From: Chloroflexota bacterium
Lineage (GTDB): Bacteria; Chloroflexota; Dehalococcoidia; SHYD01
Assembly: GCA_016190485.1 (NCBI GenBank)
Contig: JACPQN010000066.1
Span: 8,446 to 72,445, forward strand
Length of the DNA stretch: 64,000 nt
Direction of reading: 5' to 3'
A model generated the notes under the pieces. That model was not told the DNA's origin. It made no database searches and was given only the letters and a program-made list of their open reading frames with translations. This document shows positions 15,179 through 54,982 of the stretch, piece by piece. A program made the translations under genes and the position numbers. Each line of letters opens with the position of its first letter. Positions within the stretch are counted from its first letter, which is position 1.

Positions 15179-15179
15179 C

Positions 15180-17810
15180 CTAGCACTGGCTCCAGCCGCA
15201 CTCCTGGCAGGTCATGCAGCCCTCGGCGTAATAGACGGCGGCCTGGCCGCAGTCGGGGCAGATGGCCCCCAGCGGGCGGGCGGATGGCTTCTCGATGGTG
15301 GCGGCCAGCCCTTCGACAGGCTCAGGACGCGGCTCGGCCAGGGCCTTGTGCTCCGTGGGCGGCGGCGTCTCGACCTCCACGCCCAGGTAGCGCCGCAGGG
15401 CCTTGGCGATGGCGTCGGGGATGGAGCGCACCCTCCCGTTGCCGAAGCCGAAGGTGGCGTAGCCGCCGATCCCCTCGAACTGCTCGATGATCAGGAGCAG
15501 CCGCTCCCGCCGGGGGAGGGGCGCGGAGAGGCGCAGGAGCTGGGAGATGGCCCGGCAGGCCGCCTCGGTCATGGCCTGGATGTCCGACCCCGCCTTGCCG
15601 ATGGTGGCGAAGACCTCGAAGGGCTCCCCCGGCGAGACCTCGCTCACCGTGACGTAGAGGTTGCCGAAGGGCGTGGGCTGCTTGATGGTCTTGGAGTCGA
15701 GCACGTCGGGCCGGGGCGCCACGGCCTCCTGCCAGTGGGCCACCGGCGCCGGAGCGGGCTGTGCCGGGGCGGGCGCGTTGCCCGCGGTGAGCACCTGGCC
15801 GGCCCGGCTGGAGTCCCGGTAGATGGTGATGCCCTTGCAGCCCTCCCGATAGGCCAGCATGTAGGCGTTCCACACGTCGTCCACCGTGGCGTGGGCCGGG
15901 AAGTTGATGGTCTTGCTCACCGCGTTGTCGGTGTAGCGCTGGAAGGCCGCCTGCATCCGCACGTGCCACTCCGGGGTGATGTCGTGGGCCGTCACGAAGA
16001 CCCGCTGCGCCTCCTCCGGCACGCCGGCCACGTCGTGGCAGCTCCCGTGGGCCGCCACCTCGTCCATCAGCTCCTCGGAGTAAAAGCCCTGCCCCCGGGC
16101 CGCGGCCTCGAAGAAGGGGTTGACGAAGCGCTCTTTGATGGCCCCCTCCAGGCCGTGGTGCATGAAGCTGAGGGCGAAGACCGGCTCCACGCCGCTGGAG
16201 GCCCCGGCGATGAGGGAGATGGTGCCGGTGGGCGCAATGGTAGTGCGAGTGGAGTTGCGGTACCGGGGGCCGCCGGGGTAGTCGTAGATGCTGCCCTCCC
16301 AGGTGGGGAAGACGCCCCGCTCCCCGGCCAGCTCAACGGAGGCCTCATTGGCTCCCCGGTTGATGAAGTCCATCACCGCCTCGGCCAGGCGCAGCGCCTC
16401 CTCGGAGTCGTAGGGCACGCCCAGTTGCAGCAGCAGGTCGGCCCAGCCCATGACCCCCAGGCCGATCTTGCGGGTGGCCTTGGTCATCACCTCGATCTCG
16501 GGCACCACGTACTTGTTCATGTCGATGACGTTGTCCAGGAAGCGGGTGGCCAGCCGGGTGACGGCCGCCAGGCGCTCCCAGTCCACACGGTCGGCGGGAC
16601 TTTGTCCGGCGCTATTGGAGCGCACCATCTTGGAGAGGTTCAGTGAGCCCAGGTTGCAGGACTCGTAGGGCATCAGGGGCTGCTCGCCGCAGGGGTTGGT
16701 GCTCTCCACGGGCGCGATGTGGGGGCAGGGATGGTCCCGGTTCACCCGGTCAATGAAGACGATGCCGGGGTCGCCGTTCTTCCAGGCGTTCTCCACCATC
16801 TGCTGAAAGACCTCTCGCGCCCGGAACTGCCCGGACACCTGCCCGGTGCGGGGGTTGGTGAGGTCGTAGGTGCGGTCTTCCTCCACCGCTCGCATGAACT
16901 CCTCGGTCACGGTCACGGAGATGTTGAAGTTGGTGACGGAGACCATGTCGGCCTTGCAGGTGATGAACTCCTGGATGTCCGGGTGGGTCACGGAGAGGAT
17001 GCCCATGTTGGCGCCCCGGCGCATGCCGCCCTGCTTGATGGCCTCGGTGGCGGCGTCGAAGACCTTCATGAAGGAGACGGGGCCGCTGGCCACCTGGCCG
17101 GTGGACTGGACGATGTCGTTGGCGGGGCGCAGCCGACCAAAGGCGAAGCCGGTGCCGCCGCCGGTTTTGTGGATGAGGGCCGCGTGCTTCACCGAGTCGA
17201 AGATCTTGTCCAGGGAGTCCTCCACCGGCAGCACGAAGCAGGCGGAGAGCTGCTGCAGCTCCCGGCCCGCGTTGGCCAGGGCGGGCGAGTTGGGAAGGAA
17301 CTCCAGGTTGGCCATGATCTGGTAGAACTCCTCGGCCCAGGCGGCCGCGTCGGCCTGGGGGTTGTAGAGGAGCTCCGCCTGGGCCAGGTTCCAGGCCACC
17401 CGGCGGAACATCTCGTCGGGTGTCTCCACCACCCGGCCGTGGAGGTCCTTTTTCATATAGCGCTTTTCCAGCACCGTCACCGCCTGGGGCGTGAGCCTCG
17501 GTATGCCCCTGAGCCGGGTGGGCGCCCTGGGGATGACAGTGCCTGGCACGCCCGTCGTGGCGGGCACAGGGGCGGCGCGGAAGGCGCGGCCCTCCCGCAG
17601 GGCGCCGATCTCCTCCTCCAGCCGGGCCACGGCCGAAGCGCCGAAGATGCTCAGGCGCGCTGCCACGTCGGCCACTGACCAGGTGGCGGGCGCCGCCGCC
17701 GGAGCGGGATCGCTCTGGGCGACGGGGGCCAGGCCTGCCTGCCGGACAGGCAGGTGGGCTGCTCGCACGGATGTATGTTTCCGGCCGTTGCCGTTAGCGT
17801 TGGTTGTCAA
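15180..17810 (-). CDS. nrdJ: adenosylcobalamin-dependent (class II) ribonucleotide reductase
   Basis: 876 aa, class II RNR catalytic core, C-terminal CxxC...CxxC zinc ribbon. Confidence 0.9.
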   Translation of the reverse strand: MTTNANGNGRKHTSVRAAHLPVRQAGLAPVAQSDPAPAAAPATWSVADVAARLSIFGASAVARLEEEIGALREGRAFRAAPVPATTGVPGTVIPRAPTRLRGIPRLTPQAVTVLEKRYMKKDLHGRVVETPDEMFRRVAWNLAQAELLYNPQADAAAWAEEFYQIMANLEFLPNSPALANAGRELQQLSACFVLPVEDSLDKIFDSVKHAALIHKTGGGTGFAFGRLRPANDIVQSTGQVASGPVSFMKVFDAATEAIKQGGMRRGANMGILSVTHPDIQEFITCKADMVSVTNFNISVTVTEEFMRAVEEDRTYDLTNPRTGQVSGQFRAREVFQQMVENAWKNGDPGIVFIDRVNRDHPCPHIAPVESTNPCGEQPLMPYESCNLGSLNLSKMVRSNSAGQSPADRVDWERLAAVTRLATRFLDNVIDMNKYVVPEIEVMTKATRKIGLGVMGWADLLLQLGVPYDSEEALRLAEAVMDFINRGANEASVELAGERGVFPTWEGSIYDYPGGPRYRNSTRTTIAPTGTISLIAGASSGVEPVFALSFMHHGLEGAIKERFVNPFFEAAARGQGFYSEELMDEVAAHGSCHDVAGVPEEAQRVFVTAHDITPEWHVRMQAAFQRYTDNAVSKTINFPAHATVDDVWNAYMLAYREGCKGITIYRDSSRAGQVLTAGNAPAPAQPAPAPVAHWQEAVAPRPDVLDSKTIKQPTPFGNLYVTVSEVSPGEPFEVFATIGKAGSDIQAMTEAACRAISQLLRLSAPLPRRERLLLIIEQFEGIGGYATFGFGNGRVRSIPDAIAKALRRYLGVEVETPPPTEHKALAEPRPEPVEGLAATIEKPSARPLGAICPDCGQAAVYYAEGCMTCQECGWSQC

Positions 17811-33269: not shown

Positions 33270-33271
33270 CT

Positions 33272-33298
33272 TCATGCGCATCCTGCACTTCGCTGACC
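33272..33298 (+). repeat. 27-bp direct repeat, copy 1 (tcATGCGCATCCTGCACTTCGCTGACC = duplicate of the sbcD start)
   Basis: identical 27 nt at 33272-33298 and 34143-34169. Confidence 0.9.
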
Positions 33299-33447
33299 CT
33301 CGTTCGTGGTCCGCCAGCCAGGTGCTCACTTCGTTCAGCATGACATACTAGGGCACCAGTTGAGGACGACCTGGATGTTATTACGTGGGGATATAAGCCT
33401 GCTCGTATGCAACTAGGACAACAGTAGCCAATGATAAAACGAAAGAG

Positions 33448-33714
33448 GTGGTAAAGATGGCCCGATGCATCGTTGACAGCTGCACGGACTTCGCGACCCA
33501 TAATATTGGTATTCGGCTACGGCGACTAAACACCTCGGCAGTATGGGCTCCCAATACCGACGCCTTTGTTTGCGATGCCCACGCGACTGCAGGATTCAGG
33601 ATTCAGATTTTACTCACACCAAACTCAACAGGAACAATCCGGACAGAAGTTAGTTCGGTTCCTCCAGGCAGGATAGTTCGACGAACGACTCCGATCATCC
33701 ATCCGGCGCAGTGA
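33448..33714 (+). CDS. hypothetical small Cys/His-containing protein
   Basis: 88 aa ORF in the low-GC segment, CIVDSC...CDAH; no confident family. Confidence 0.25.
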   Translation: MVKMARCIVDSCTDFATHNIGIRLRRLNTSAVWAPNTDAFVCDAHATAGFRIQILLTPNSTGTIRTEVSSVPPGRIVRRTTPIIHPAQ

Positions 33715-33851
33715 TTATTTGTGCAGGACGGATTATATATGCAAAGCCGGAAGCGCTTGCACTACCTATATGTGGTGGTGAAGGCGCTCGAGACCGATGC
33801 CTTTGTGCTGACCGCATACTTGACCGATAGAGTAAAGAGGGGAGTCCAGCT

Positions 33852-34055
33852 ATGGCCGGAAAACTCGTGAAGATCTGGTACGATCCCGAAGGTGACTATC
33901 TGGAGGTGATCTTCGAGCAAAAGGAGGGCTACTTCCGGGAGACGGCCAGCGACCAGGTGATGGAGAAGGTCGACGTGGAAGGTAATGTCCTCGGCTTCTC
34001 TATCTTGCGGGTGAGCGCTCTGAAACAGAAGCCGCTAGAAGTCGCCCTGTCCTGA
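33852..34055 (+). CDS. DUF2283 family small protein
   Basis: KIWYDPEGDYLEVIF pattern (YDxExDxLxI) typical of DUF2283; GGAG RBS. Confidence 0.55.
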   Translation: MAGKLVKIWYDPEGDYLEVIFEQKEGYFRETASDQVMEKVDVEGNVLGFSILRVSALKQKPLEVALS

Positions 34056-34092
34056 ACGGTAGATGCCGCATCCCGCCTTGGCCCGTCATTGA

Positions 34093-34139
34093 CAAGCCCT
34101 CACCCTTACCCTCTCCCAGAGGGAGAGGGAGGTAGCTAA
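34093..34139. repeat. hairpin repeat family copy 3 (CCTCACCCT-TA-CCCTCTCCC-aga-GGGAGAGGG)
   Basis: read directly; just upstream of sbcD. Confidence 0.8.
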
Positions 34140-34142
34140 GAG

Positions 34143-34169
34143 TCATGCGCATCCTGCACTTCGCTGACC
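34143..34169 (+). repeat. 27-bp direct repeat, copy 2 (authentic sbcD start)
   Basis: identical to 33272-33298. Confidence 0.9.
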
Positions 34170-35455
34170 TCCATATCGGGGTGGAGAACTACGGGCGGGT
34201 GGACCCTGCCACGGGCCTCTCCACCCGGCTGGGGGACTTCCTGCGGGCGCTGGACCAGGTGGTGGACTACGCGCTGGCCAACGAGGTGGACCTGGTGCTC
34301 TTCTGCGGCGACGCCTACAAGAGCCGGGATCCGTCCCAGACCCACCAGCGGGAGTTCGCCCGCCGCATCATGCGCCTGACGGGCGGGGGGGTGCCGGCCT
34401 TCCTGCTGGTGGGCAACCACGACCTTCCCTACGCGGCGGGGCGGGCCACGGCGCTGGACATCTACCAGACCCTGGGGGTGCCTGGCGTGACCGTGGGGCG
34501 GGAGCTGGGGACGCAGGTGGTGGAGAGCCGCCGCGGGGAGCGGCTCCAGATCGTGGCGGTGCCGTGGCTCAACCGGAGCTGGCTGCTGGCCCAGGAGGAG
34601 CACAAGAACCTGGCCGCCCGGCCCCTGAACGAGCTGATGGAGGAGAAGCTGCAGCGGGTGCTGCAGGTGGAGTTCTCCCGCCTGGATCCGGAGCTGCCGG
34701 CGGTGCTGGCGGGCCACCTGGCCCATGCCGAGGCGGTGCCGGGGTCGGAGCGCCGGATGACAGTGGGCAGCGACCCGGCGTTCCTCCTGAGCACCCTGAC
34801 GGACCCTGGCGGCCCTTCGACAAGCCCTTCGACAAGCTCAGGACACCGCTCAGGACGCGGCATGGTGGACTACGTGGCCCTGGGGCACATCCACAAGCAG
34901 CAGGCGCACCAGAGCCGGGGGGTGCCTGTGGTCTACGCCGGCAGCCTCCAGCGGGTGGACTTCGGCGAGGAGGAGGACCAGAAGGGCTTCTACGTGGTGG
35001 AGATCGATCCGGCGCGGCCCGCGGGGGAGAGGCTGCGCTCCTACGACTTCGTGCCAGTGGAGGCCCGGGCCTTTGTGACCATCCGGGTGCGGTCTCATAG
35101 TGGGAACCCCACGGAGGCGGCGCTGCGGGCCATCGCGCGGCGGGAGCGAGACATCCGGGACGCCATCGTCCAGGTGCAGGTGGAGCTGGCCGCAGGCCAG
35201 GAGGGCCTGCTGGACGACGCGGCCATCAGGCGCGCGCTGGCTTCAGCGCACTACATCGCAGGGATCAGCCGCGAGGCGCCGGACAGCCCGCGGCGGCGTC
35301 TGGGCGAGGTGAAGGTGGAGGAGCTGGCGCCGCTCCAGGCGCTGGAGCTGTACCTGCGGGCCCGGGAGACGCCGTCGGAGCGGACGCAGGCGCTGCTGGA
35401 GTACGGTCGCCGGCTTATTGAGTCGCCTGAGGCGGCCAGCGAGATGGCGCCCTGA
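34145..35455 (+). CDS. sbcD: exonuclease SbcD (Mre11-type phosphoesterase) carrying an in-frame minisatellite insertion
   Basis: MRILHFADLHIG, GDxYK, GNHD metallophosphoesterase motifs; insertion encodes GGPSTSPSTSSGHRSG at 34811-34857. Confidence 0.85.
   Translation: MRILHFADLHIGVENYGRVDPATGLSTRLGDFLRALDQVVDYALANEVDLVLFCGDAYKSRDPSQTHQREFARRIMRLTGGGVPAFLLVGNHDLPYAAGRATALDIYQTLGVPGVTVGRELGTQVVESRRGERLQIVAVPWLNRSWLLAQEEHKNLAARPLNELMEEKLQRVLQVEFSRLDPELPAVLAGHLAHAEAVPGSERRMTVGSDPAFLLSTLTDPGGPSTSPSTSSGHRSGRGMVDYVALGHIHKQQAHQSRGVPVVYAGSLQRVDFGEEEDQKGFYVVEIDPARPAGERLRSYDFVPVEARAFVTIRVRSHSGNPTEAALRAIARRERDIRDAIVQVQVELAAGQEGLLDDAAIRRALASAHYIAGISREAPDSPRRRLGEVKVEELAPLQALELYLRARETPSERTQALLEYGRRLIESPEAASEMAP
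34811..34857 (+). repeat. minisatellite (cccttcgacaag x2 + ctcaggacaccg units) inserted in frame in sbcD
   Basis: 12-bp units read directly; same units at 37001, 40461, 43512 and in reverse orientation intergenically. Confidence 0.85.
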
Positions 35456-36582
35456 TGCAGGGGGCCTTCCGCATCGCCCGCATCGCAGGGGTGGAGATCA
35501 GCGTCCACTACACCTGGCTCTTCGCCTTCTTTCTCATCACCTGGACCCTGGGGATCGGGTATTACCCCCATGAGCACCCTGGGTGGAGCCCGCTCCTCTA
35601 CTGGGTCGCGGGCGGGCTGTCGGCCCTGCTGCTTTTCGGGTCGGTGCTGCTGCACGAGCTGGCCCACTCCTTCATGGCCCTGGCCCGGGGACTGCCGGTG
35701 CAGGGCATCACCCTGTTCATCTTCGGTGGGGTCAGCTCCATCCAGATGGAGTCGCAGAGCGCGGGGGACGAGTTCATCATCTCTGCCGTGGGGCCGCTGA
35801 CCAGCCTGGCGCTGTCGGGCGGCTTCTGGACGCTGTCGTCGCTGCTGCCCAACGAGAGCGTGGCGGGGGCCATGCTCCAATACCTCACCTTCGTCAACGT
35901 GCTGCTAGCCGTGTTCAACCTGGTACCGGGGTTTCCGCTGGACGGCGGACGGCTGCTGCGGGCGGCGCTGTGGGGCATCACCGGCAGCCTGTCCAGGGCC
36001 ACCGGCATTGCGGCCCGGGTGGGCCAGATGGTGGCCTTCCTGCTCATCGTGTGGGGAGTCGTGCAGCTCTTCTCGGGCAACATCCTGGGTGGGCTGTGGA
36101 TCGCCTTCATCGGGTGGTTCCTCAACAGCGCGGCGGAGTCCAGCCGCCAGGAGGTGACCGCAGGCGAGCTGTTCCGCCGCTTGCGGGTGGGCGACCTGAT
36201 GGACCCGTCGCCGGAGACGGTACCCCCGGAGCTTTCGGTGGACGCCCTGGTGCGCGACTACATCCTGCGCCGGGGCTGGCGGGCCCTGCCGGTGTGCCAG
36301 GACCGGCGACTGCTAGGCATCGTGAGCTTGACAGACGTGCGGGAGGTGGAGGAGCCGCGCTGGCCCGCGACCCGCATCGAGGAGGTGATGACCCGCGCGC
36401 CGCTGTACACCGTGGCCCCCGGGACGGAGCTGATGGAGGCGCTGGATTTGCTGGCGGACCACCGCATCCATCAGGTGCTGGTGGTGGAGGACGGCCACCT
36501 GGTGGGGCTGCTGACCCGCAGCCACATCCTGGAGTACCTCCAGTTGCGGGAAGAGCTGGGCTTCCGGGGGGCGCGCCGCTAG
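35455..36582 (+). CDS. site-2 protease (M50) family zinc metalloprotease with tandem CBS domains
   Basis: HELAHSF (HExxH), LDGG motif, 6 TM segments, C-terminal CBS pair; start overlaps sbcD stop (TGATG). Confidence 0.8.
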   Translation: MQGAFRIARIAGVEISVHYTWLFAFFLITWTLGIGYYPHEHPGWSPLLYWVAGGLSALLLFGSVLLHELAHSFMALARGLPVQGITLFIFGGVSSIQMESQSAGDEFIISAVGPLTSLALSGGFWTLSSLLPNESVAGAMLQYLTFVNVLLAVFNLVPGFPLDGGRLLRAALWGITGSLSRATGIAARVGQMVAFLLIVWGVVQLFSGNILGGLWIAFIGWFLNSAAESSRQEVTAGELFRRLRVGDLMDPSPETVPPELSVDALVRDYILRRGWRALPVCQDRRLLGIVSLTDVREVEEPRWPATRIEEVMTRAPLYTVAPGTELMEALDLLADHRIHQVLVVEDGHLVGLLTRSHILEYLQLREELGFRGARR

Positions 36583-36605
36583 GGCGCAGGGCCGACGGGT
36601 CCGAC

Positions 36606-37406
36606 ATGGCTATGAAGGATGTCTCGCGGGCGCAGGCCGTGGTCTTCGACCTGGACGGCACCTTGGTGGACACCTATGCCATCAACCTGAAGGCCACGCA
36701 GCACGTCCTGCGGCAGTTCCTGGGGCGCCTGCCGCCGGAGGAGGAGGTGGCGCCCCACTACGGGGCGCCGCTGCGGGAGATCATGGCGCACTTCGCGCCG
36801 GGCCAGGAAGCGGCCATGGTGGCCGAGTTTGAGGCCTACTACCTGGAGCATCAGGAGGCGATGGTGCGGCCCTTTGCGGGCGTCTCCGAGATGCTGCGAG
36901 TGTTGCGGCAACGGGGTTATCCCCTGGCGATCCTCTCCAACAAGCGCAAAGAGCCGGGGCTGCGGGAGCTGCGGGCCTGCGGGCTGGCGGAGCACTTCCG
37001 CCCTTCGACAAGCCCTTCGACAAGCTCAGGACACCGCTCAGGACACCGCTCAGGACAGCGCTCAGGACGCAGCTCGGTGCTGTTCCTGGAGGACCTGCGG
37101 GCGCCCAAGCCGGCGCCGGAGGCGCTGCGGCAGTCCGCGGAGCTGCTGGGGGTAGACGTGCGGCGAGTGCTCTACGTGGGCGATAGCGTCCTGGACGTGC
37201 AGTGCGCCCGGAAGGCCGGCGCCCGGAGCGCGGCCGCGCTGTGGGCCGCCGGGGATGGTTCGGCTGGGCTCACCACAAGTGGTTCGGCTGGGCTCACCAC
37301 AAGCCGGGAGCGAGTGCTGGCCCAGGAGCCGGATCACGTGCTGACGTCGGTGGCGGAGCTGCTGGCGCTGTGCCCGCCACTGATCGGTGATCCGCGGGAG
37401 AGGTGA
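36606..37406 (+). CDS. HAD-superfamily hydrolase (phosphoglycolate-phosphatase-like) with two in-frame repeat insertions
   Basis: motif I FDLDGTLVDT, motif II ILSNK, motif IV GDSVLD; insert PSTSPSTSSGHRSGHRSGQRSG (37001-37070) and tandem 24-mer GSAGLTTS x2 (37256-37303). Confidence 0.75.
   Translation: MAMKDVSRAQAVVFDLDGTLVDTYAINLKATQHVLRQFLGRLPPEEEVAPHYGAPLREIMAHFAPGQEAAMVAEFEAYYLEHQEAMVRPFAGVSEMLRVLRQRGYPLAILSNKRKEPGLRELRACGLAEHFRPSTSPSTSSGHRSGHRSGQRSGRSSVLFLEDLRAPKPAPEALRQSAELLGVDVRRVLYVGDSVLDVQCARKAGARSAAALWAAGDGSAGLTTSGSAGLTTSRERVLAQEPDHVLTSVAELLALCPPLIGDPRER
37001..37070 (+). repeat. minisatellite insertion in HAD gene
   Basis: gcccttcgacaagcccttcgacaag + (ctcaggacaccg)x3-4. Confidence 0.85.
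37256..37303 (+). repeat. perfect 24-bp tandem duplication in HAD gene
   Basis: ggttcggctgggctcaccacaag(t/c) x2. Confidence 0.85.
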
Positions 37407-37445
37407 TGATATTCAGCCTAAGCCCGTCAGAAAGGCGAGCTGGGT

Positions 37446-37497
37446 AGATTTCACCCTCACCCTATCCCTCTCCCCTCGAGCCTCGAGGGCGAGGGAA
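37446..37497. repeat. hairpin repeat family copy 4 (TCACCCTCACCCT-AT-CCCTCTCCC-ctcgagcctcgag-GGCGAGGG-AAC)
   Basis: read directly; loop itself contains the palindrome CTCGAG..CTCGAG. Confidence 0.75.
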
Positions 37498-37735
37498 CCG
37501 CGAGGCGGCGTGCTAGCAACTCCCGCATTTGCCTACCCACCACGAGCACAGGGACGTTCATGGTGGGCTCATAATGCCACCACAAACTCAAGATTCTTAC
37601 GGCGGCGAGCCTAGCGAAAACAATTCCAACGAACTTTTGAAATTCGCCCAATTACGGAGCTAAGTCGATCCATAATGTGACGTGGGGTGATGATATCGGG
37701 ACAGGTGCATACAAAAGCGAACGAGGAGGGGAAAG

Positions 37736-38077
37736 ATGGAACCTCAGGAGTCTGGATTCAATGTTCAGCTTCAGTGGCGACAGAGGTGGCAATCCGGGCT
37801 TGGGCAAGCGGCTGAACAGGGTGAAAAATCGTCGACGCTTGGCATTTGCGGTAGGAAAGAACATCTCCAGTTGCGCTTCTATTCATCAGATTTTGCATCA
37901 GATTTTTCCGCCACCGCCCAGTTTTCTTGGCGACAAGTTATGCAAGCTTTGATTAACAATAACCCTGGCCTCTTTGGAGTTCTTGAAGAGCCACTCCATC
38001 ACGTCTTCGCCGATGCACTGATAGAAATGGGGTTTGAAGTGCCCGGCTTCCCACCGGAAGATGACGACGATTTCTAG
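37736..38077 (+). CDS. hypothetical small protein with acidic C-terminus (EDDDDF)
   Basis: 113 aa ORF in an AT-rich (about 50% GC) island, GGAGG RBS. Confidence 0.3.
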   Translation: MEPQESGFNVQLQWRQRWQSGLGQAAEQGEKSSTLGICGRKEHLQLRFYSSDFASDFSATAQFSWRQVMQALINNNPGLFGVLEEPLHHVFADALIEMGFEVPGFPPEDDDDF

Positions 38078-38186
38078 AAAGACGCGGCAACACCGTAGAA
38101 ATGCTCATAGCGCTTGAGGTCTCTTTTCAAGAAAGGCTCGCTCGAATATCTTTCTTGCAGGCCTCGCGCGGAAAGGGAGAACTACT

Positions 38187-39488
38187 ATGGCGAACATTGA
38201 TGATCACCTGATTCGAAATGTGTTCGACCAATACACTCAGTTGGAAAATCGCCTGACCAACGCCTTGTTTCAGGTCTTTCGCCACGAGCCTGACATAGCT
38301 AGGGAGTTCGTGGTGTGGGCAGGCGGGCCGCCGCACCAACGCGAGCTGCTGCAACTCGCATGCCAGATGACGCCCGCGTCAAATCTAAGTGAACTCGAGA
38401 AAGAGGACTTCCCACGGGCAAGGACCATCCCAGACGGATGGATATTTGATCCCGAAGGCGAGTGGGCTGTAGTGATCGAAAACAAGGTGACTGCAACGCT
38501 AGAGCGCAATCAGATAGAGGGTCACATAACGACAGCGAGGGCTCTCGGATTCAGGGCTATCTTTCCTGTAGTCCTCACCGCGGATCGGGAGGAACCCCCA
38601 GATTTGCGCCAGTGGGCGCCCGCCGGAGTCACTGTGCGGTGGCGGCCGTGGAGAGAGCTATACGTGGAGCTGAAGCCGAAGGATTCGAGCTGGTGGGTTA
38701 AAGAGTTCCTCGGCTACATGGAGGAATTGGAGTTCAGATTTCACGAAGGAGGCAATTCGGAAGTGGAGCTGACAGGCTTTTCTGGGATCCCCTTCGACAA
38801 GGAACACGGGTACAACGCACTCCAGGCGCGTGCCCAATTGCTGGGCCTCATGGCGGCATTGCGGAAACATCCAGGGCTGCTGACGTGCTACCCAAATGTC
38901 CAGCCAGAAGGAAAAAAGACACCGACGTCGGGCGCCATGTGGGACACGATAAAATTCTCCCCTGAGGTCCGCACAACAGCGCCTCACCTTACCCTCGTCA
39001 TCGACCGCGATGACGTGCGACTTCAAGTGATTTTGCCCAATGCGGACAAAACCAAAGGCTGGCAGCGCCTGGTCAGACGAAAAAGAGAAGCGGTCGAGGA
39101 GATTCTGGAGCTCGTCCATGGGCAGGTCCGGAATCTCAGGGGCAGGCCGAAGTGTTTTCTCGACCTGTATCAGCGTCATTTCCTTTACTTGGGGGCGGAG
39201 GGCGTTATAGACGCCAGATTGGAAGTTGACCTGGACGCCGTCTTGGACAAGCAGGACGCGAAGATAGACGGGAAGGTTAAAACGCGCAGAGAATGGTGGC
39301 CGGCTGTATCTGGTCTCATTGCTGCCCCAAAGACGGGGGCAAATCTTGAGCTTTCCCTGGTGTTAAGGTACCGTTACTCAGACAGTGCCACGACGAGTGT
39401 CTTAAACAGCCCAGACTTTGTCGAGGAGGCCGCCGCGGCCTTCATTGCCCTTCACCCCTGGTATGACTTCCTCACCCAAGAAGAGTAA
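38187..39488 (+). CDS. hypothetical protein with N-terminal PD-(D/E)XK nuclease-like core
   Basis: E(20)...IPDGWIF-x12-AVVIENKV matches the E/PD/ExK restriction-endonuclease-fold arrangement; ~300 aa C-terminal region without recognisable motifs; low GC. Confidence 0.45.
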   Translation: MANIDDHLIRNVFDQYTQLENRLTNALFQVFRHEPDIAREFVVWAGGPPHQRELLQLACQMTPASNLSELEKEDFPRARTIPDGWIFDPEGEWAVVIENKVTATLERNQIEGHITTARALGFRAIFPVVLTADREEPPDLRQWAPAGVTVRWRPWRELYVELKPKDSSWWVKEFLGYMEELEFRFHEGGNSEVELTGFSGIPFDKEHGYNALQARAQLLGLMAALRKHPGLLTCYPNVQPEGKKTPTSGAMWDTIKFSPEVRTTAPHLTLVIDRDDVRLQVILPNADKTKGWQRLVRRKREAVEEILELVHGQVRNLRGRPKCFLDLYQRHFLYLGAEGVIDARLEVDLDAVLDKQDAKIDGKVKTRREWWPAVSGLIAAPKTGANLELSLVLRYRYSDSATTSVLNSPDFVEEAAAAFIALHPWYDFLTQEE

Positions 39489-39580
39489 ATCGAGCAAAGG
39501 GGCCTTGACTAGCCGAATTGCGTGGCCTTCTGCTGCATTTGCACATTTGTGTGACCAAGCCATTTTCCTGGAGGAGTAGT

Positions 39581-41275
39581 ATGAAGATCACCTGCTACGG
39601 GGGGGTGGGGCAGATCGGCGGCAACAAGGTGCTGCTGGAGGACGGCCTTACTCGCCTCTTTTTCGATTTCGGCATCCCCTTCGGCGACCGGGCACGTTTC
39701 TTCGAAGAGTACCTGAACCCGCGCCCCGGCGCGGGGCTGCTGGACGTGATGGAGATGGGGCTGCTGCCGCCCCTGCGCGGCATCTACCGCAGCGACCTGG
39801 TGCCGGCCGGCCGGTTCTGGGAGCGGGTGGAGCGGTCGCAACACCTGAGGCCCCACCTGCGAGACCTGGAGCGCCTGGACGGGGTGCTGGTCTCCCATGC
39901 CCACGTGGACCACAACGGGTATCTCTCCTTTCTTGATCCCGGAATCCCCATCTACTCCTCGGCCATGACGGGGTTCATCGCCAAGGCCATGCAGGACAGC
40001 GGACAGACGGACTTCGAGCGGGAGTCGGTGTACGCCGTGCCCCGGAAGGAGAGCGGCGGCGTGCTCACTACGGTGACCTCCAGCAGGTCGAATCCCGCGC
40101 CAGCGCTGCAGCGGCCCTACTACTTCCCCGACCTGGCCGATCTCAGCGCCGAGGCCCTGGACTTCTGGCGTCAGACGCCCGCGGCCCGTCCCATGGATGC
40201 CGTGCTCCCCCGACAGGCGGAGGGCATCGGCGAGCTGCCGGTGCGCTTCTTTCCCGTGGACCACTCCATCTTCGGCAGCAGCGCCTGCGCGGTGGAGACC
40301 TCCGCCGGCTGGGTGGTGTACACCGGCGACCTGCGCTTCCAGGGTGGGACGGCGGCACTGACTCGGGACTTCATCCGGGAGGCGGCCCGGCTCCGCCCGC
40401 GGGTGCTCATCTGCGAAGGGACACGCCTGTCGCCGGAGGGGAACGCCGAGGCGCTCTTCGGCCCTTCGGCAAGCTCAGGACACCGCAGGCTCAGGACGGC
40501 GCCCTTCGGCAGGCTCAGGACGGCGCCGGTGACGGAGGAGCAGGTGCGGGCCAACGCGCTGCGGGCCATCGGGGGCGCCAGCGGCCTGGTGGTGGCCGAC
40601 TTCGGGCCCCGCAACATCGAGCGGCTGCGGGCCTTCCTGGAGATCGCCCGGGAGACCGGGCGGCAGCTCGTGGTGCTGGACAAGGACGCCTACCTGCTGG
40701 GCGCGATGCGCCTGGTGGACTCCGGTGTGCCGGGGGTGGAGGAGGCGCCCAACCTGCTGGTGTACCAGGACCTGCGCGCCACCCTGGCCCTGTGGCAGCG
40801 GGACCTGCGCGACCGGCTGGCCAGCAGGATCGTTGGCCCCAGCCAGGTGCAGGCGCACCTGGGGGAGTTCATCCTCTGCTTCAGCTTCTGGGACATCAAG
40901 AACCTCATTGACATCGATCCGGGGGAGGGCCTCTACCTCTACTCCTCCAGCGAGGCCTATAGCGAGGAGCAGGAGCTGGACCTGTGGCGGCTGCGCAACT
41001 GGCTGCAGCACTTCGGCCTGACGCCCCGGGGTCTTCCCCAGGAGAGCACCGACGAGCGGGGCAGGAAGGTCTACAGGACGCCCCCCGGCGAGGAGGGCTA
41101 CCACGCGTCGGGCCACGCCACGGGCGACGAGATCCTGGCCATGGTGCGGGAGATCAACCCAAAAACGGTGGTGCCGGTGCACACGGAGCACCCGGAGCTG
41201 TTCGTGGAGGGACTGAAGGGGTCCGGAATCGAGGTGCGGTTGCCGGCGTACGGCGAGGCGCTGGAGTTCGGGTAG
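39581..41275 (+). CDS. MBL-fold beta-CASP nuclease (RNase J / Artemis-type family) with in-frame repeat insertion
   Basis: SHAHVDHNG (HxHxDH), ...ASGHA and PVHTEHPE (beta-CASP motifs B/C), N-terminus ITCYGGVGQIGGN like RNase J; insert GPSASSGHRRLRTAPFGRLRTAP at 40461-40523; GGAGGAG RBS. Confidence 0.7.
   Translation: MKITCYGGVGQIGGNKVLLEDGLTRLFFDFGIPFGDRARFFEEYLNPRPGAGLLDVMEMGLLPPLRGIYRSDLVPAGRFWERVERSQHLRPHLRDLERLDGVLVSHAHVDHNGYLSFLDPGIPIYSSAMTGFIAKAMQDSGQTDFERESVYAVPRKESGGVLTTVTSSRSNPAPALQRPYYFPDLADLSAEALDFWRQTPAARPMDAVLPRQAEGIGELPVRFFPVDHSIFGSSACAVETSAGWVVYTGDLRFQGGTAALTRDFIREAARLRPRVLICEGTRLSPEGNAEALFGPSASSGHRRLRTAPFGRLRTAPVTEEQVRANALRAIGGASGLVVADFGPRNIERLRAFLEIARETGRQLVVLDKDAYLLGAMRLVDSGVPGVEEAPNLLVYQDLRATLALWQRDLRDRLASRIVGPSQVQAHLGEFILCFSFWDIKNLIDIDPGEGLYLYSSSEAYSEEQELDLWRLRNWLQHFGLTPRGLPQESTDERGRKVYRTPPGEEGYHASGHATGDEILAMVREINPKTVVPVHTEHPELFVEGLKGSGIEVRLPAYGEALEFG
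40461..40523 (+). repeat. minisatellite insertion in beta-CASP gene (variant units cccttcggcaag / ctcaggacggcg)
   Basis: read directly. Confidence 0.8.
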
Positions 41276-41285
41276 GCAGACTTGC

Positions 41286-43179
41286 GATGTTGCTCTCAGA
41301 AGTCGAACTTGAAAATTTCAAGGGTGTATTCACGAGACAGCGCATTGGCGGGTTGAGACGAGTCAATACGCTCATCGGCCGGAACAATGGTGGCAAGACA
41401 TCTTTGTTGGAAGCCTTGTGGGCTGTCCGAGACTCTCTGGTTGGTGGGCAAGTGGCAGAAGATATGACGACGTTGTTGCCATTTCGTGAGGCTGATAGGG
41501 TGATGAGAATAAGGCTGACATTTGAACTCGAGCAGGAAGAATACCAGCAACTACGCGACCACTTGGAAGTCGATCTCCAGCCTAATATCACTACGATCCC
41601 TGCGGCCTGCACCTGGGAATTTGTTTGGGAGCCAAGCCTGGGCACTGGAAACAGGCTACTTCCAACTTCATGTACATTACGGCTGAATGACCGAAACTTG
41701 ACGGTTTGGGTCGCAGATAGTGCGGGTGATTTGAGGGCTGCGCGCTGGGATGAGGCGCGATCGTTCTACGTCAGTAGAAGGCAGGGACTGGTGCTTCAGC
41801 TTCACAGCATCGGGAGCGTCCAATCGCGTCTACGAGTACAAGGTCCCAATGATGCAGCGCAGTTCGGGATGAATCTTGCGCTTGGCTTTGCCCAAAAGTT
41901 GAGGTTTCGCAGAACAGTCCGGGTGGCCGACGATCGGTCGCCAGCGTCACAGAACAGCGAGCTAGATGAGCAAAGCAAGAACATCTCTCAAGTGCTTCTC
42001 ACGCTGAAAAACAACGAAGCGCAGGTTTTCGAGAGGATCGAGAACACTCTGTGCAGAATTCTGCCTGAAGTACGGGGACTTAGTACGCCCTTAGAGGGTA
42101 CTGAAACGGCCCTAAAGCCAGCCCTCGAAGCTAGCAGACTTGAGAAGCATGCCTTTTACCTGTCTGAAATGGGTTTCGGCACACAGCAGGTACTTGCTCT
42201 CCTGACTACAATCTTTTGCTCTCCCAGTGGAAGCCTAGTCTTGATCGAGGAACCCGAGATATGTCTTCATGCGGATGCCCAAAGAAGTCTCGCAAGTTTT
42301 TTGGTGGAGTACTCAAAGAAAACCAACACGCAATTTATAATGACTACTCATAGCCCCATATTCGCTCCGCAAGGAAGCGAAGGGGCGACTTACCTTGTTA
42401 AGTGGGACCAAGAGAATGGGACTACTTATTCCCGCGTTCGCGAGGGAGAAGCATCGATAATCAAAAGAGAGTTGGGATGGCGAAACGCGGATCTTTTCAT
42501 GAAAGACGGGGTTGTCTTTTGGGAGGGGGAGAGTGAGGATGCTGCAATGCCTATCCTTATTGATGCACTCGGTTATGGAGAAAGGATGCCCGCCATCGCT
42601 TCCATCAGTTTGCGTGGCAGTGTAGCGGATAGGCTGAGAGTGCTACGTGAGTTCCTTCGCTATCTTCAGGGTTCAGACCTGAAACCCTTTGTTTTCTCTG
42701 ACGACGACGAGCACGTGGCGACAACTATTCAGAACTTAATCGCTGAAGGTCTTCTGCCGCAATTGAACTACCACATTTGGGGAAGGAGTCCTGGAAATCT
42801 TTCTGACGTATTGTCAGGGTTGGAATTTGAGGATAATTTCCAGGTTTCGCAACTTATTGAAGCTGCCAACGCCCAGGCAGCGGAATCGGGTCAAGCTGAG
42901 AGACTAACTACTGACGGATTCAGGAAAAGTCGACAGACCATTAAGACAAAGAAAAAGACAAGCAAAGCACTCAACGACTATTTTCACAATAAAGTTGGTC
43001 GAGGGTTGGATAAACCCACGCTGAATAAAGCGTTAGCTCTTATGGTCGCTCGTGAGCTTCGAAATGAAATGCCGAGGTCTGTTCAAACATATGAATTCAA
43101 GGGGGCGATAAAAGATCTGTTCGATGTCCTGTATCCCGTTCGTAAAGGAGAGGCCGAGCAACCCGAGGACCAGATGTAG
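41286..43179 (+). CDS. OLD-family ATP-dependent nuclease (ABC ATPase + TOPRIM), class 1 / orphan GajA-like
   Basis: Walker A GRNNGGKTSLLEAL, Walker B LVLIEEPEICLH, H-loop FIMTTHSP, TOPRIM-like VVFWEGESED and DxD FVFSDDDEH; GC about 50% versus about 68% in flanks. Confidence 0.65.
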
Positions 43180-43181
43180 TC

Positions 43182-45839
43182 ATGGTCCCTCTGAAGCTGG
43201 CGCTGCGCAACTTCATGGCCTACCGGCGGCTGGAGCCGCCGCTGGACTTCACGGGCATCCACGTGGCGTGCCTCTCCGGGCCGAACGGGGCCGGCAAGTC
43301 GGCCCTGCTGGATGCTATGACCTGGGCCCTGTGGGGCCAGGCCCGGGCCCGGTCCGACGACGACCTGATCACCCTGGGCGAGAGCGAGATGGAGGTGGAG
43401 CTGGAGTTCGGCCTGGGGGAGGAGCGCTACCGGGTGCTGCGGAAACGGACCCGGGGCGTCCTGCGGCGGCCCGGTCAGTCCATCCTGGAGCTCCAGATAT
43501 GGGGTGGGGATGGCCCTTCGACAAGCCCTTCGACAAGCTCAGGACACCGCTCAGGACACCGCTCAGGACAGGGCCCTTCGATAGGCTCAGGACAGAGCCT
43601 GTTCCGCCCGCTGACGGGGAACACGCTGCGGGAGACGCAGCGGCAGATCGAGGGGCTGCTGCGGCTGGACTACCAGACCTTCATCAACAGTGCGCTGCTT
43701 CTCCAGGGAAGGGCCGACGAGTTCACCCTGAAGGCGCCGGGCGAGCGCAAACGGGTGCTGGGGGAGGTGCTGGGCCTCTCCCGCTACGACGCCTATGAAG
43801 CCCTGGCCAGGGAGCAGGCCCGCCGCCGGGAGGGCGAGCTGCAGGGCCTGCGGGCCGAGATGACCTCCCTGGAAGAGCAGGTGAGCCACCGGGAGGAGTT
43901 TGAGTCGGAGCTGCAGGGGATCCGGCGGGCGCTTCAGGAGATGAGCATCCAGAGCAAAGCCCAGGAAGAGCGGCTGCGTGCGCTCCAGGAGGCGCAGCGG
44001 CTGCGGGCAGAGAAGCAGGCCCGCCTGGTCGAGGCGCGTGCTCGGACGCAACAGGCTGAGGTGGAGCTACAGGAGCAGCGGCAGCGAGAGGGGGCGCAGA
44101 TGGCGCGCCTCCAGCAGTTCCGGGAGATGCTGGACCAGCGGGAAGCCATCGAGCAGGGGCTGGAGCGCTATCGGAGGCTGGTCGCGGCCGACGATGCGCT
44201 GTCGGCCGGGCTGCAGCAACTGGTGGCGCTGCGGGAGCAGGCCACGGCGCTGGAGCGTACGGTGGAGGCGGCCAGGAGCCGGCTGGAAGCACAGGCCCTG
44301 GTCTTAGAGCGGGAGACCACCGGACTGCGAGAGGTGGCGGCGCGGCGGAGCGGCTTGGCCGAGGCGCAGCAGGCGGCGCGGCGGACGCTGGCGGCCCTGG
44401 CGGAGAAAGACGCAGAGCTCAAGAGCCAGCGGGAGGCGCTGGAGGCGCTGGCGGGGCGCATCGGCGTGCTGGAGCACAGCAATCAGGAGATCACCCGCCA
44501 GGGGCAGGAGATCCGGGCCAAGGCCGAGCAACTGGCCCACCCCGGCGTCCCGGGGGTGTGCCCCCTGTGCGGCACTGAGCTGGGGCCCGAGGGTCACCAG
44601 CGGATCCTGGAGGAGTACCAGGGGGAGCTGGAGCGCCAGCGGGAGCGCTATCGCGAGAACGACCGCGCCATCAAGGAGCTTCAGAAGGAGCAGCAACAGC
44701 GCCAGGCCGGCGCGGCGGCCCTGGAGGCGGCCACGAACCGAGAGCGGGCCGCGGCCCAGGCCCAGGCGGCCACTGCGGCGCAGGGGCTGGCGGAGGCGGA
44801 GAAGGCGGCCACATCCCTGGTCGAGGCCGAGGCCCGCCTGAAGACGATCCAGGAGGGCCTGAGGGCCAACGCCTATGCGCCGGCGGAGCAACAGGCGCTG
44901 GTGGAGGTGCAGCGCCAGATCGCCGGCCTGGGATATAACCAGGAGGAGCACCGGCGCGTGCGCGAGGAGCTGGCCGCCTCAGGCGAGTGGCTCGCCAAAG
45001 GCGAGCGCCTCCAGGAGGCCCTGCGCCGATTGCCCGCGGAGGAGACGGAGCTGGCCAGCGTGCGGGAGGCCGCGGCCCGCTGGGAACAGCGGGCCGCCCA
45101 GGAGGCGGCGCTGGGCGCGGCGCTGGCGGAGGAGCTGGCGGCCCTGCCCGATACCGCCCAGGAGACGGTGGCCGCCCAGCAGAACTTGGAGCAGACCCGC
45201 TCTCAGCTCATGCAGGCCAATGCCGAGCTGGGGCGGGTGCAGACCCTGGTGGACCGCTGCCGGGAGCTGGAGGGCAACATGCGGGAGCGGCGGCGGCAGA
45301 TGACCCAGACGGAGGTAGAGAAGGGAATTTATGAAGACCTCTCCCTGGCTTTCGGGCGTCGGGGGGTGCAGGCGTTGCTTATCGACGCGGCGCTGCCGGA
45401 GCTGGAGGAGGAGGCTAACAGACTCCTGGGTCGCATGACTGACAACTGCCTCAGCCTGCGCCTGGAGACCCAGCGCCAGACCCGCGGCGGCGGCATGGCG
45501 GAGACGCTTGACATAAGAATTGCGGACGAGCTGGGGACCCGGGCCTATGAGCTGTACAGCGGCGGCGAGGCCTTTCGGATCAACTTCGCGCTGCGCGTCG
45601 CCATCTCCAAGCTGCTGGCCCGGCGGGCAGGGGCGCCCTTGCCGACCCTGGTGATAGACGAGGGCTTCGGCACTCAGGACGCTGCGGGCCGGGAGAAGCT
45701 TATCGAGGCGGTGAACGCCATCGCGGGGGACTTCGAGCGGGTGCTGGTGATCACCCACATCGACGAACTGAAGGACGCCTTCCCGGTGCGGATCGAGGTG
45801 ACCAAGACGCCGGAGGGGTCACGGGTGGAGGTGGTGTGA
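43182..45839 (+). CDS. sbcC: exonuclease SbcC (Rad50/SMC-like ATPase) with in-frame minisatellite insertion
   Basis: N-terminal Walker A GPNGAGKSALLDA, long coiled coil, zinc hook CPLCG, C-terminal signature/Walker B; insert at 43512-43597. Confidence 0.85.
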   Translation: MVPLKLALRNFMAYRRLEPPLDFTGIHVACLSGPNGAGKSALLDAMTWALWGQARARSDDDLITLGESEMEVELEFGLGEERYRVLRKRTRGVLRRPGQSILELQIWGGDGPSTSPSTSSGHRSGHRSGQGPSIGSGQSLFRPLTGNTLRETQRQIEGLLRLDYQTFINSALLLQGRADEFTLKAPGERKRVLGEVLGLSRYDAYEALAREQARRREGELQGLRAEMTSLEEQVSHREEFESELQGIRRALQEMSIQSKAQEERLRALQEAQRLRAEKQARLVEARARTQQAEVELQEQRQREGAQMARLQQFREMLDQREAIEQGLERYRRLVAADDALSAGLQQLVALREQATALERTVEAARSRLEAQALVLERETTGLREVAARRSGLAEAQQAARRTLAALAEKDAELKSQREALEALAGRIGVLEHSNQEITRQGQEIRAKAEQLAHPGVPGVCPLCGTELGPEGHQRILEEYQGELERQRERYRENDRAIKELQKEQQQRQAGAAALEAATNRERAAAQAQAATAAQGLAEAEKAATSLVEAEARLKTIQEGLRANAYAPAEQQALVEVQRQIAGLGYNQEEHRRVREELAASGEWLAKGERLQEALRRLPAEETELASVREAAARWEQRAAQEAALGAALAEELAALPDTAQETVAAQQNLEQTRSQLMQANAELGRVQTLVDRCRELEGNMRERRRQMTQTEVEKGIYEDLSLAFGRRGVQALLIDAALPELEEEANRLLGRMTDNCLSLRLETQRQTRGGGMAETLDIRIADELGTRAYELYSGGEAFRINFALRVAISKLLARRAGAPLPTLVIDEGFGTQDAAGREKLIEAVNAIAGDFERVLVITHIDELKDAFPVRIEVTKTPEGSRVEVV
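43512..43597 (+). repeat. minisatellite insertion in sbcC
   Basis: gcccttcgacaag x2, ctcaggacaccg x3, gcccttcgataggctcaggacag. Confidence 0.85.
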
Positions 45840-45967: not shown

Positions 45968-46003
45968 CTTGTCCTGAGCACCGTCGAAGGGCTAGCCGAA
46001 GGG
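45968..46003 (-). repeat. intergenic copy of the minisatellite unit in reverse orientation
   Basis: cttgtcctgagcaccgtcgaagggctagccgaaggg = reverse complement of the cccttcg...ctcaggacaag units. Confidence 0.7.
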
Positions 46004-50867: not shown

Positions 50868-50980
50868 CCTTGCAAGGGGCCCTTCGGCTGCGCTCAGGAC
50901 AAGGTTCACGGAACCCCTTCGGGGTTTGACATATTCGGGGGCACATCCCCCGAACCCCCTGGCAAAGCATGCCCTGAGCC
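50868..50980. repeat. structured repeat cluster upstream of uvrA: inverted pair of minisatellite units plus nested small hairpins
   Basis: cccttcggctgcgctcaggacaagg ... gccctgagcctgccgaaggg (inverted), AACCCCttcGGGGTT, TTCGGGGGcacaTCCCCCGAA. Confidence 0.7.
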
Positions 50981-51243
50981 TGCCGAAGGGAGGCTGCGCC
51001 TCTCTGCACGCTCCCTTGTTAAACACTCTCCTTGTGCTCCGGTTGACCGATGCTTATGCCCCCTGTGGGGCGCCTGTTATAGGGCGTACGGGGAGCGCCG
51101 GCCGGAGCTATCGTTGGTCTGAATAGGGAATTGTAGCACTAAATGGGGAACTTGTGCGACTTGGGGAATTGGGGAGTTGCCGTAACCCGCGCGGCGTTGC
51201 TCGGTTATACTGGGTGTATACTGGCTACTGAGGACACTGCGGC

Positions 51244-54948: not shown

Positions 54949-54982
54949 GGCCTGTCCTGAGCAACGTCGAAGGGCTTGTCCC
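54949..54982 (-). repeat. intergenic minisatellite-unit copy (reverse orientation)
   Basis: ggcctgtcctgagcaacgtcgaagggcttgtcc. Confidence 0.7.

Follow-up and report, generated by a model that had tools for sequence, protein, structure and literature searches.

Tandem arrays inside conserved genes of a Chloroflexota bacterium as probable in-frame insertions of a 24-nt hairpin repeat

It is known that selfish palindromic repeats can be inserted in frame at permissive positions of protein genes. Rickettsia palindromic elements (RPEs) are reportedly selfish sequences of this type, which lie in frame in many protein genes, are compatible with the fold of the host protein and are said to be present in expressed proteins. 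RPE-1 measures 100-150 bp and is restricted to Rickettsia. Elements of the IS200/IS605 group and their miniature derivatives move by "peel-and-paste," with ends that are defined by hairpins, site-specific insertion and precise excision, and they have neither target-site duplications nor terminal inverted repeats. The hairpin repeats called REPINs are mobilised by RAYT, the REP-associated tyrosine transposase (Bertels and Rainey, 2011; PMC3116915). REPs tagged with GTAG or CGTC are mostly intergenic and often form inverted dimers, and a subset lies in frame inside genes, where a unit adds 7-8 residues and a dimer 15-25 (Di Nocera, De Gregorio and Rocco, 2013; PMC3733652). Additional file 3 of that study lists more than 60 ORFs (open reading frames) of Opitutus terrae with in-frame REPs; many intragenic REPs are found in replication and repair genes (uvrA, uvrB, recB, dnaE2, ligase), REPs inside other palindromes have also been noted, and the CGTC class has no known dedicated transposase (Di Nocera, De Gregorio and Rocco, 2013). 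Here, we analyze a stretch of 64,000 nucleotides from a Chloroflexota bacterium (assembly GCA_016190485.1, contig JACPQN010000066.1, positions 8,446 to 72,445; hereafter the window), in which tandem arrays of 12-nt sequences interrupt conserved genes including sbcD and sbcC. These arrays are likely to be in-frame insertions of a 24-nt short interspersed hairpin repeat, spread by copying and shaped by slippage and selection.

The repeat consists of two halves, A (CCCTTCGACAAG) and B (CTCAGGACnnnG), which together make one unit of 24 nt or eight codons. Read on the strand opposite to the one quoted in the original prediction, the unit is a short imperfect palindrome that forms a stem-loop, as REPs and REPINs do, with a 5-bp stem and a near-invariant 11-nt loop (GAGCYTGTCGA); copies in the window have the form GTCCT-GAGCTTGTCGA-AGGGC. 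The stem changes by compensatory pairs (GCCCT/AGGGC, GGGCT/AGCCC, GTGCT/AGCAC, GTGGT/ACCAT, and ATCCT/AGGAT), and G-T wobbles are frequent on the hairpin strand. In a sample of 107 copies picked by the loop alone, from which copies matching the search pattern were left out, 80.7% of the stem cells are paired compared to 55.6% after shuffling. The covariation score of the stem is 0.644, which none of 500 shuffles reached, compared to 0.223 for the shuffled stems, and shifting the 3' stem partner by 1-3 columns yields at most 0.22. Single-unit inserts measure exactly 24 nt or eight residues, as seen in the HAD phosphatase gene of a related locus (L367, 24 nt), in the metallo-beta-lactamase (MBL) protein of a syntenic relative (L121, eight residues) and in the class II ribonucleotide reductase (RNR) gene of the window (24 nt). 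Of the unit's six frames, five are free of stop codons, and consequently most insertions leave the gene unbroken. Complete hairpin units occur 12 times in the window (shuffled mean 0.1, maximum 2) and zero-mismatch 20-mers eight times, compared to a mean of 2.3 in shuffles with three mismatches allowed, both far above chance; the unit occupies nine sites in the window. Rfam covariance models gave no match at the gathering score for the window and eight loci, and at a permissive threshold only generic long-hairpin matches to miRNA models appeared.

Arrays of A and B halves are present in sbcD, in the HAD gene, in the MBL/beta-CASP gene and in sbcC, essentially where they had been predicted (Table 1). 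All intragenic lengths are multiples of three, and the arrays of sbcD, HAD site 1, MBL and sbcC lie on the coding strand, which bears out the earlier view that the arrays preserve the frame and encode Ser/Thr/Gly-rich stretches. The gene frame reads GPSTSPSTSSGHRSG... throughout the sbcD, HAD site 1 and sbcC arrays, and a 44-nt A2B2 core is identical in these three genes. Inside the MBL array one repeat step is 16 nt long and shifts the frame, which the total length of the array nevertheless preserves. The array can be parsed as CTCTTCGG / A B / CAGG B / A B or as a nest, CTCTTCGG / CCCTTCGGCAAGCTCAGGACACCG / CAGGCTCAGGAC..., and so may be read as a 24-nt unit nested in another (8, 24, and 16 nt) with a third unit in tandem; the same 8+16 architecture is found in three other loci (L021, L027, and L042). 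One more intragenic copy, beyond those predicted, is the unit in the RNR gene. Since this gene is on the other strand, its unit is read as PEPVEG, and it lies in the linker that joins the TSCPD domain to the C-terminal zinc ribbon. A perfect 24-bp tandem duplication had also been reported for the HAD gene and is indeed present (HAD site 2, 2.0 copies with 100% match by Tandem Repeats Finder). It belongs to a variant subfamily of the form GTGGT-GAGCCCAGCCGA-ACCA, with the hairpin units gtggtGAGCCCAGCCGAacca on the minus strand. The reverse-orientation and inverted copies expected in intergenic DNA were likewise recovered. The inverted pair upstream of uvrA is a REPIN-like long hairpin: as single-stranded DNA it folds with z = -4.3 and -3.7, and none of 200 shuffles folds as well. 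Folding of each intragenic array into a nested hairpin was ruled out; as single strands these arrays show no structure (z from +1.8 to -0.3) and fold no better than shuffles. The isolated A 12-mer may be a decayed copy or a chance match.

Table 1. Repeat copies and their host genes in the window (positions count from the first nucleotide of the window).
Feature	Position	Strand	Remarks
sbcD insert	34813..34860	+	A A B B, 48 nt; in frame; encodes about PSTSPSTSSGHRSGRG, SbcD residues about 223-239
HAD site 1	37001..37072	+	A A B B B B, 72 nt; in frame; encodes RPSTSPSTSSGHRSGHRSGQRSGRS
HAD site 2	37256..37303	+	two tandem 24-nt variant-subfamily units (TGGTTCGGCTGGGCTCACCACAAG); encodes GSAGLTTS twice
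MBL/beta-CASP insert	40454..40525	+	72 nt; in frame overall; encodes ALFGPSASSGHRRLRTAPFGRLRT
sbcC insert	43514..43597	+	A A B B B then A B, 84 nt; in frame; 28 residues
RNR unit	15309..15332	+	single 24-nt unit; gene 15180-17810 on minus strand; reads PEPVEG
Intergenic unit and extra half-unit	45971..46003	-	downstream of sbcC, convergent genes
Inverted unit pair	50880..50900 / 50971..50990	+ / -	70-nt spacer; upstream of uvrA, divergent genes
Intergenic single unit	54954..54974	-	between 3' ends of PBP1 and groEL genes
Isolated exact A 12-mer	38790..38801	+	inside hypothetical gene; no B half after it
sbcD	34145..35455	+	Mre11-type nuclease; Pfam Metallophos; PDB Mre11/SbcD matches
HAD-IA phosphatase gene	36606..37406	+	phosphoglycolate phosphatase/PpaX-like; Pfam and PDB matches
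MBL gene	39518..41275	+	metallo-beta-lactamase/RMMBL (beta-CASP-type) protein; Pfam match
sbcC	43182..45839	+	Rad50-type with zinc hook; Pfam match

As had been supposed, the arrays are insertions and not ancestral sequence, which orthologue alignments demonstrate. The SbcD of the window, which is 100% identical to an NCBI entry named "exonuclease SbcCD subunit D [Chloroflexi bacterium]," differs from all 22 aligned orthologues (54-71% identity) by its array, which is situated just before the DYVALGHIH motif in a stretch that is already length-variable among them. A placement in a surface loop had been suggested as a check and agrees with the AlphaFold2 model, made for SbcD only (mean pLDDT 80.5, pTM 0.76). 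In this model residues 225-237 have a pLDDT below 50 and form a coil between the helix 215-219 and the strand 243-246, so that the insert is predicted to occupy a disordered, structurally permissive loop position. The relative L121 has a syntenic operon (sbcD-M50/CBS-...-MBL-sbcC). Aligned to its orthologues there, the MBL array of the window corresponds to a gap of 20 residues (about 24 with adjacent substitutions) and the SbcC array to a gap of 28 residues at a D-G position in the N-terminal ATPase lobe, which suggests a location in a beta-hairpin turn. The true start of the MBL gene is probably near 39581. HAD site 1 adds about 24 residues compared to PDB 2nyv, between the "HF" and "PKP" motifs, and is empty in most HAD orthologues (P0121, P0123, and P0125-P0127). 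In the alignments the MBL and HAD arrays adjoin conserved blocks and do not interrupt them, and their positions are probably turns or loops. In sbcD, HAD, MBL and sbcC alike, the repeat lies in an intact ORF with the frame kept and is absent from orthologues. The RNR linker is hypervariable, and its closest orthologues are without the PEPVEG motif. A different insert of 14 residues, RLADLPTGQAGGQT, occupies another site (alignment columns about 63-76) in the HAD orthologue P0124 and probably stems from a further short repeat family.

The repeat had been described as genome-specific, a view that does not survive a wider search. With the 20-nt core CCCTTCGRCARGCTCAGGRC as query and one genome per species, at least 120 loci were found in species genomes, compared to a chance expectation estimated at roughly 10-35 matches for the whole collection, and the matches also share conserved flanks. 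The taxa among the matches listed are Actinomycetota, Pseudomonadota, Cyanobacteria, Chloroflexota, NC10, Acidobacteriota, Armatimonadota, CPR groups, Bacteroidota, Myxococcota, Planctomycetota and others, and include cultured isolates and complete genomes or chromosomes (Actinomycetota, Pseudomonadota). At least 120 loci carry the core in IMG/VR viral contigs. The A-A-B form occurs at no fewer than 120 metagenome loci, and the doubled halves are therefore a common form and not a local accident. Inverted unit pairs, the doublet arrangement of REPINs, are numerous in proteobacterial loci. For the loop to be nearly invariant in so many phyla and in phage contigs, it must either have a conserved partner that recognizes it or spread horizontally with some frequency. 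In full-text literature the peptide and DNA strings of the unit returned only primers and chance matches, no description of it was found in the literature on REPINs, RAYT and intragenic repeats, and annotated plasmid records with its proteobacterial form have no feature annotated over it. The family with its invariant loop and its distribution over phyla and phages, the eight-codon module, the A^nB^n nesting rule and the coding behavior as a variable-number tandem repeat (VNTR) appear to be undescribed so far.

Intragenic status in metagenomes was judged by Pfam on 20 long ORFs that span A-A-B arrays, since stop-free stretches are uninformative in high-GC DNA. Strong Pfam matches were obtained for 18 of them, and in at least a dozen of these the array is located within or between the matched domains. 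The hosts comprise GH94, GH38, RadA, DnaE, MurB, ParB, Lon, FtsH, FtsX, IDH, HemC, DHODH, GT4 and others. Arrays in sense orientation are read in the PSTSSG (Ser/Thr/Gly) frame in 10 of 12 cases, where one third would be expected, and antisense arrays in the PEPVEG (Pro/Glu/Gly) frame in six of six; the window and L121 are biased likewise. This bias fits purifying selection on the translated product. It could also be taken to mean that selection acts on the peptides as functional modules, for example Ser/Thr linkers that are flexible or regulated by phosphorylation, and that the DNA similarity between genes reflects this selection or a recruitment akin to exon shuffling; the persistence of the HAD site 2 insert across orthologues that are about 71% identical would agree with this. 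However, the same DNA also occurs outside genes, in either orientation and read in further frames (PFDKLR, LRQAQ, PEPVEG), its nucleotide identity is far above what selection on a peptide needs, close orthologues do well without the inserts, and the SbcD insert is predicted to be disordered, which makes a selected peptide module very improbable. With the repeat as their source, the peptides PSTSSGH/Q, PFDKLR, LRQAQ, PEPVEG and LSLSKG in environmental bacterial proteins are explained as footprints of a single 24-nt sequence. Recognizing such footprints flags the insert positions as permissive loops and prevents spurious ORFs from being called.

Copy number and period of the two halves are coupled. 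In the unbiased set of species genomes 133 of 151 units are A1B1, and two or more B halves occur in 4% of the units with one A compared to 33% of those with at least two. For arrays with at least two A halves this frequency rises to 73% in the metagenome set, where 60 of 91 A2 arrays are A2B2. An A period of 8 nt is accompanied by a B period of 15-18 nt in six of six cases as well as in the MBL array of the window, and with an A period of 11-12 nt the B period is likewise 11-12 nt in 74 of the 76 metagenome arrays and in 4/4 from the genome set plus the window. The two periods sum to about one unit, as they should when one unit is nested in another that is split after CCCTTCGA or CCCTTCGACAAG; simple tandem duplication cannot convert A B into A A B B. 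We infer nested insertion to be the process behind this coupling, and the period sum (12+12 or 8+16, about one unit) provides a concrete signature of insertion into hairpin loops. Units are also situated in the loops of other palindromes at positions 480 and 8213 of L121, for example as GTAGGGGCGCAGCA[unit]TGCTGCGCCCCTAC in its sbcD. These composites (469-520 and 8199-8250) have the unit exactly in the loop of a GTAG-type palindrome, and one of them lies in frame in the sbcD of L121 and encodes VGAQHPSRASGHSAAPLQ. At several metagenome loci (L142, L150, L190, L200, and similar ones) units in reverse orientation, e.g., CCGTGAGCGGAGTCGAACGG, are interleaved between forward B halves, and these mosaic arrays suggest repeated nesting in both orientations.

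Two further modes of growth can be recognized. HAD site 2 and sbcC provide examples of whole units added in tandem (A B A B), and so does the SbcD of L367, which has two units at a site where L121 has one. Single 12-nt steps distinguish three samples (L167, L187, and L223) at an orthologous DUF362 gene with near-identical flanks, in which A2 is followed by B2, B3 or B5. HAD site 2 holds two copies in the window and three in the orthologue P0121 (L366), so that the repeat shows the copy-number polymorphism at one locus that is typical of coding VNTRs. The original prediction named local slippage, or a repair deficiency, as a possible origin of the arrays. Slippage does contribute, as the B2/B3/B5 series and the two versus three copies at HAD site 2 illustrate, but it is not supported as the origin, because the A2B2 composite recurs in unrelated genes and samples; a repair deficiency as origin lacks support for the same reason. 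A purely local minisatellite, in which 12-nt units expanded in place by slippage, perhaps owing to a defective SbcCD locus and with no mobile element involved, would explain why the arrays are tandem and perfect and why B varies in 12-nt steps between samples and orthologues. Yet an identical 44-nt core lies in three different genes of the window and the same composite in at least 120 unrelated metagenome contigs and genes, and independent slippage does not predict A and B periods that sum to one unit. With single units in many phyla and with the host genes intact, we give this explanation very little credence. An assembly artefact has to be considered as well, given that the source is a metagenome-assembled genome made from short reads, in which repeats could induce chimeric joins and short tandem repeats can be collapsed or expanded. 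However, the arrays (24-84 nt) are presumably shorter than a typical read, the long conserved ORFs are all kept in frame, the same architectures are found in independent assemblies from many projects and in complete chromosomes, and different samples form a clean allelic series of 12-nt steps at orthologous loci, so that the probability of an artefact is negligible. The distribution of the repeat contradicts slippage alone, a selected peptide module and an assembly error alike.

The history of HAD site 1 is informative on how units arrive. The window has A2B4 at this site, and L367 (P0122), whose HAD protein is about 68% identical, has one 24-nt unit inserted at precisely this nucleotide position. 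P0123, with 96.4% identity to the protein of L367, is empty here, as is P0121, the closest HAD orthologue of the window. Either the site was hit more than once or units were lost precisely. HAD site 2 is common to the window and P0121, and some inserts therefore persist over long divergence. Units could also be copied from nearby by template switching, microhomology repair or gene conversion, with local spread within a few kb. In line with this, sbcD, HAD and sbcC have the variant GACAAG...GGACACCG in common over a distance of less than 9 kb, the intergenic copies are other variants, and the rare variant TCGAGAGCCTC occurs three times in one gene of L121. Unit-like flanks (TTCC^GCTCGG at HAD site 1, GCTCGG right of the RNR unit) and the lack of a transposase in the window, of a target-site duplication and of a terminal inverted repeat would agree with it too. 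Against it, sharp ends that delimit whole 23-24-nt units at many unrelated sites are more typical of an excised or cleaved element, and the use of one nucleotide site in two lineages suggests target recognition. Templated repair thus seems a viable but rather unlikely route of spread; it is compatible with an inserted hairpin repeat, being an alternative mechanism for copying the same element. The sharp ends and the reuse of one site lean toward an activity specific to the element. A search for a defined target motif gave no consistent target, and the apparent G^C junction turned out to be an artefact of the chosen register.

The clustering of arrays in a DNA-repair locus, pointed out in the original prediction, is real within the window. 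The 11.7-kb interval from sbcD to sbcC, which makes up about 22% of the coding DNA of the window, contains five of the six intragenic sites (post-hoc binomial test, p about 0.003) and four of the five affected genes; the fifth gene is that for RNR. The clustering recurs in L121, where the orthologous operon has six units at sites that differ from those of the window, four in sbcD, one at the C-terminus of the M50/CBS protein and one in MBL, and several units are present in the sbcD of L367. No intragenic units were found in the more distant relatives L122-L125. A restriction to repair genes does not hold, since MurB, FtsH, Lon, IDH and glycoside hydrolases are hosts too. The clustering may result from short-range copying, from the tolerance of large multidomain proteins or from an interaction with hairpin processing. 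SbcCD is a hairpin-cleaving nuclease; if true genome-wide, an enrichment in sbcCD and other repair genes would extend an observation made on other REP families and would raise the question of a conflict between palindromic repeats and the enzymes attacking them. The inverted pair 50880-50990 is located upstream of a further repair gene, uvrA, alongside the hits in RNR and sbcCD.

In the explanation that we favor, units would have been copied into coding DNA in this Chloroflexota lineage, by a copy-and-paste mechanism as far as we can infer. Arrays would then grow in three ways: a whole unit inserts into the loop of a resident unit and yields A A B B with periods of 12+12 or 8+16, further units are added in tandem and yield A B A B, and the B half gains or loses 12-nt steps by replication slippage. 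Purifying selection would retain those copies that are read as flexible peptides, rich in Ser/Thr/Gly or in Pro/Glu/Gly, within variable surface loops or linkers, and the host proteins therefore probably still work, as their intact frames and the loop positions of the inserts suggest. Several points weigh against this explanation. Genes for a Y1 (RAYT) or DDE transposase, TnpA or TnpB are absent among the about 45 ORFs of the window, target-site duplications and terminal inverted repeats are not visible, and the boundaries are ambiguous by about 1 nt. A lone 5-bp stem with an 11-nt loop is a thermodynamically weak hairpin. Nesting is deduced from the repeat periods, for which two coordinated duplications would be an alternative, and the metagenome set was chosen for an A period of 12, so that only the B period is informative there. 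Retained protein function is assumed from the intact frames and loop positions, and the sbcD-sbcC enrichment comes from small numbers, namely five of six sites in one 64-kb window and the 11.5-kb contig of one relative. Tentatively, the proposal may be taken further: the unit might be a minimal mobile hairpin of 23-24 nt with an almost invariant loop, shared by bacterial phyla, carried by phages and copied by an enzyme acting in trans or by a repair pathway into exposed single-stranded loops of its own copies, whence the nested A^nB^n arrays, and of other REPs. Being eight codons long and poor in stops, it could colonize essential genes and perhaps prefers sbcCD and other replication or repair genes. 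We regard this extended form as possible but rather doubtful. Whatever the route, nature has repeatedly performed an experiment in which loops of SbcD, SbcC, DnaE, RadA, MurB, Lon and FtsH are extended by an eight-codon insertion and expanded in steps of four codons.

Compared to the described systems, the unit resembles several and matches none in full. Like RPEs it is palindromic and inserted in frame, but it measures 24 nt and is found across phyla, and no sequence relationship to RPEs was seen. The clean presence/absence alleles are reminiscent of IS200/IS605 elements, and repeated use of one nucleotide site would fit these as well; unlike them, the unit has no definable conserved target tetranucleotide and is not accompanied by TnpA or TnpB in the window. 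We know of no IS200/IS605 member nearly as short, 24 nt being far below the size of any of them. With coding minisatellites it shares in-frame tandem units of variable copy number, but VNTRs are locus-specific, and copies of the unit are scattered over many loci and genomes, on either strand and in hundreds of unrelated contigs. A MITE (miniature inverted-repeat transposable element), strictly defined, has terminal inverted repeats and a target-site duplication; the comparison of empty and filled sites revealed no duplication, and the unit offers only its 5-bp stem. Of the alternatives that were raised at the outset, a MITE-like element with a coding-neutral design nevertheless fits best, in view of the 24 nt or eight codons, the five of six stop-free frames, the occurrence on both strands and the intergenic inverted pairs. 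With REPINs the unit shares the hairpin, the inverted doublets (50880-50990), a non-autonomous nature and presumed single-stranded DNA hairpins, but it differs in its almost invariant loop across phyla, in the lack of a GTAG tag and in the lack of a RAYT gene in the window. A close resemblance is to the REPs of Di Nocera, De Gregorio and Rocco (2013), which are likewise short and palindromic, form intergenic pairs, are inserted in frame and sit in other palindromes. In contrast to these, the unit is conserved in its loop and not in its stem, and A^nB^n nesting and 12-nt copy-number variation in coding DNA are features of the unit that are not described in PMC3733652. Neither the text of that paper nor its supplementary files in text form contain any signature of the unit, be it peptide or DNA. 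A terminal unpaired GTAG or CGTC tag was not found; the flanks are variable (CGGT, GAAC, AGGC) and TGTC occurs only inside the loop. As it lacks both this tag and the hallmarks of a MITE, the unit is best regarded as working like an intragenic REP without being a member of that family.

Some additional features of the window touch on the repeat and its surroundings. The cumulative GC skew over positions 1-64000 has its minimum near 10-12 kb and then rises steadily. The nine intragenic units, which occupy six sites, are all located to the right of the minimum and have one absolute orientation regardless of gene strand, which might reflect the direction of replication. Just upstream of sbcD, positions 31600-34100 form a low-GC island (about 0.52 versus about 0.67 elsewhere) that was probably acquired horizontally and contains a gene for a restriction endonuclease of the EcoO109I type (32568-33269) as well as an ORF without a family match (31679-32446). 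Lower-GC DNA is also found between the HAD and MBL genes, where two ORFs on the plus strand (37736-38077 and 38187-39488) have no Pfam or PADLOC match; the isolated A 12-mer at 38790 lies in the larger one. Between the MBL gene and sbcC, an ORF on the plus strand (40984-43179) in lower-GC DNA encodes an OLD/GajA/AriA-like ABC ATPase, with PADLOC matches to GajA, AriA and Old at E values as low as 3e-26. The syntenic operon of L121 does not contain this ORF, which looks like a defence-type gene inserted in the sbcCD operon.

The intergenic region upstream of the RNR gene (14440-15200) is packed with other REP-like palindromes, among them several of the form ccctctccc...gggagaggg. It is adjoined by a gene on the minus strand (13831-14490) for a TIR-domain protein (Pfam TIR_2, with a weak ThsB-like match in PADLOC). 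Within this region, a TGTC-tagged element, tgtcATTCTGAGCGAAGCGAAGAATctg, at 14537-14565 is of the kind described in PMC3733652 and has a CTGAGC...CGAAG core in common with the unit.

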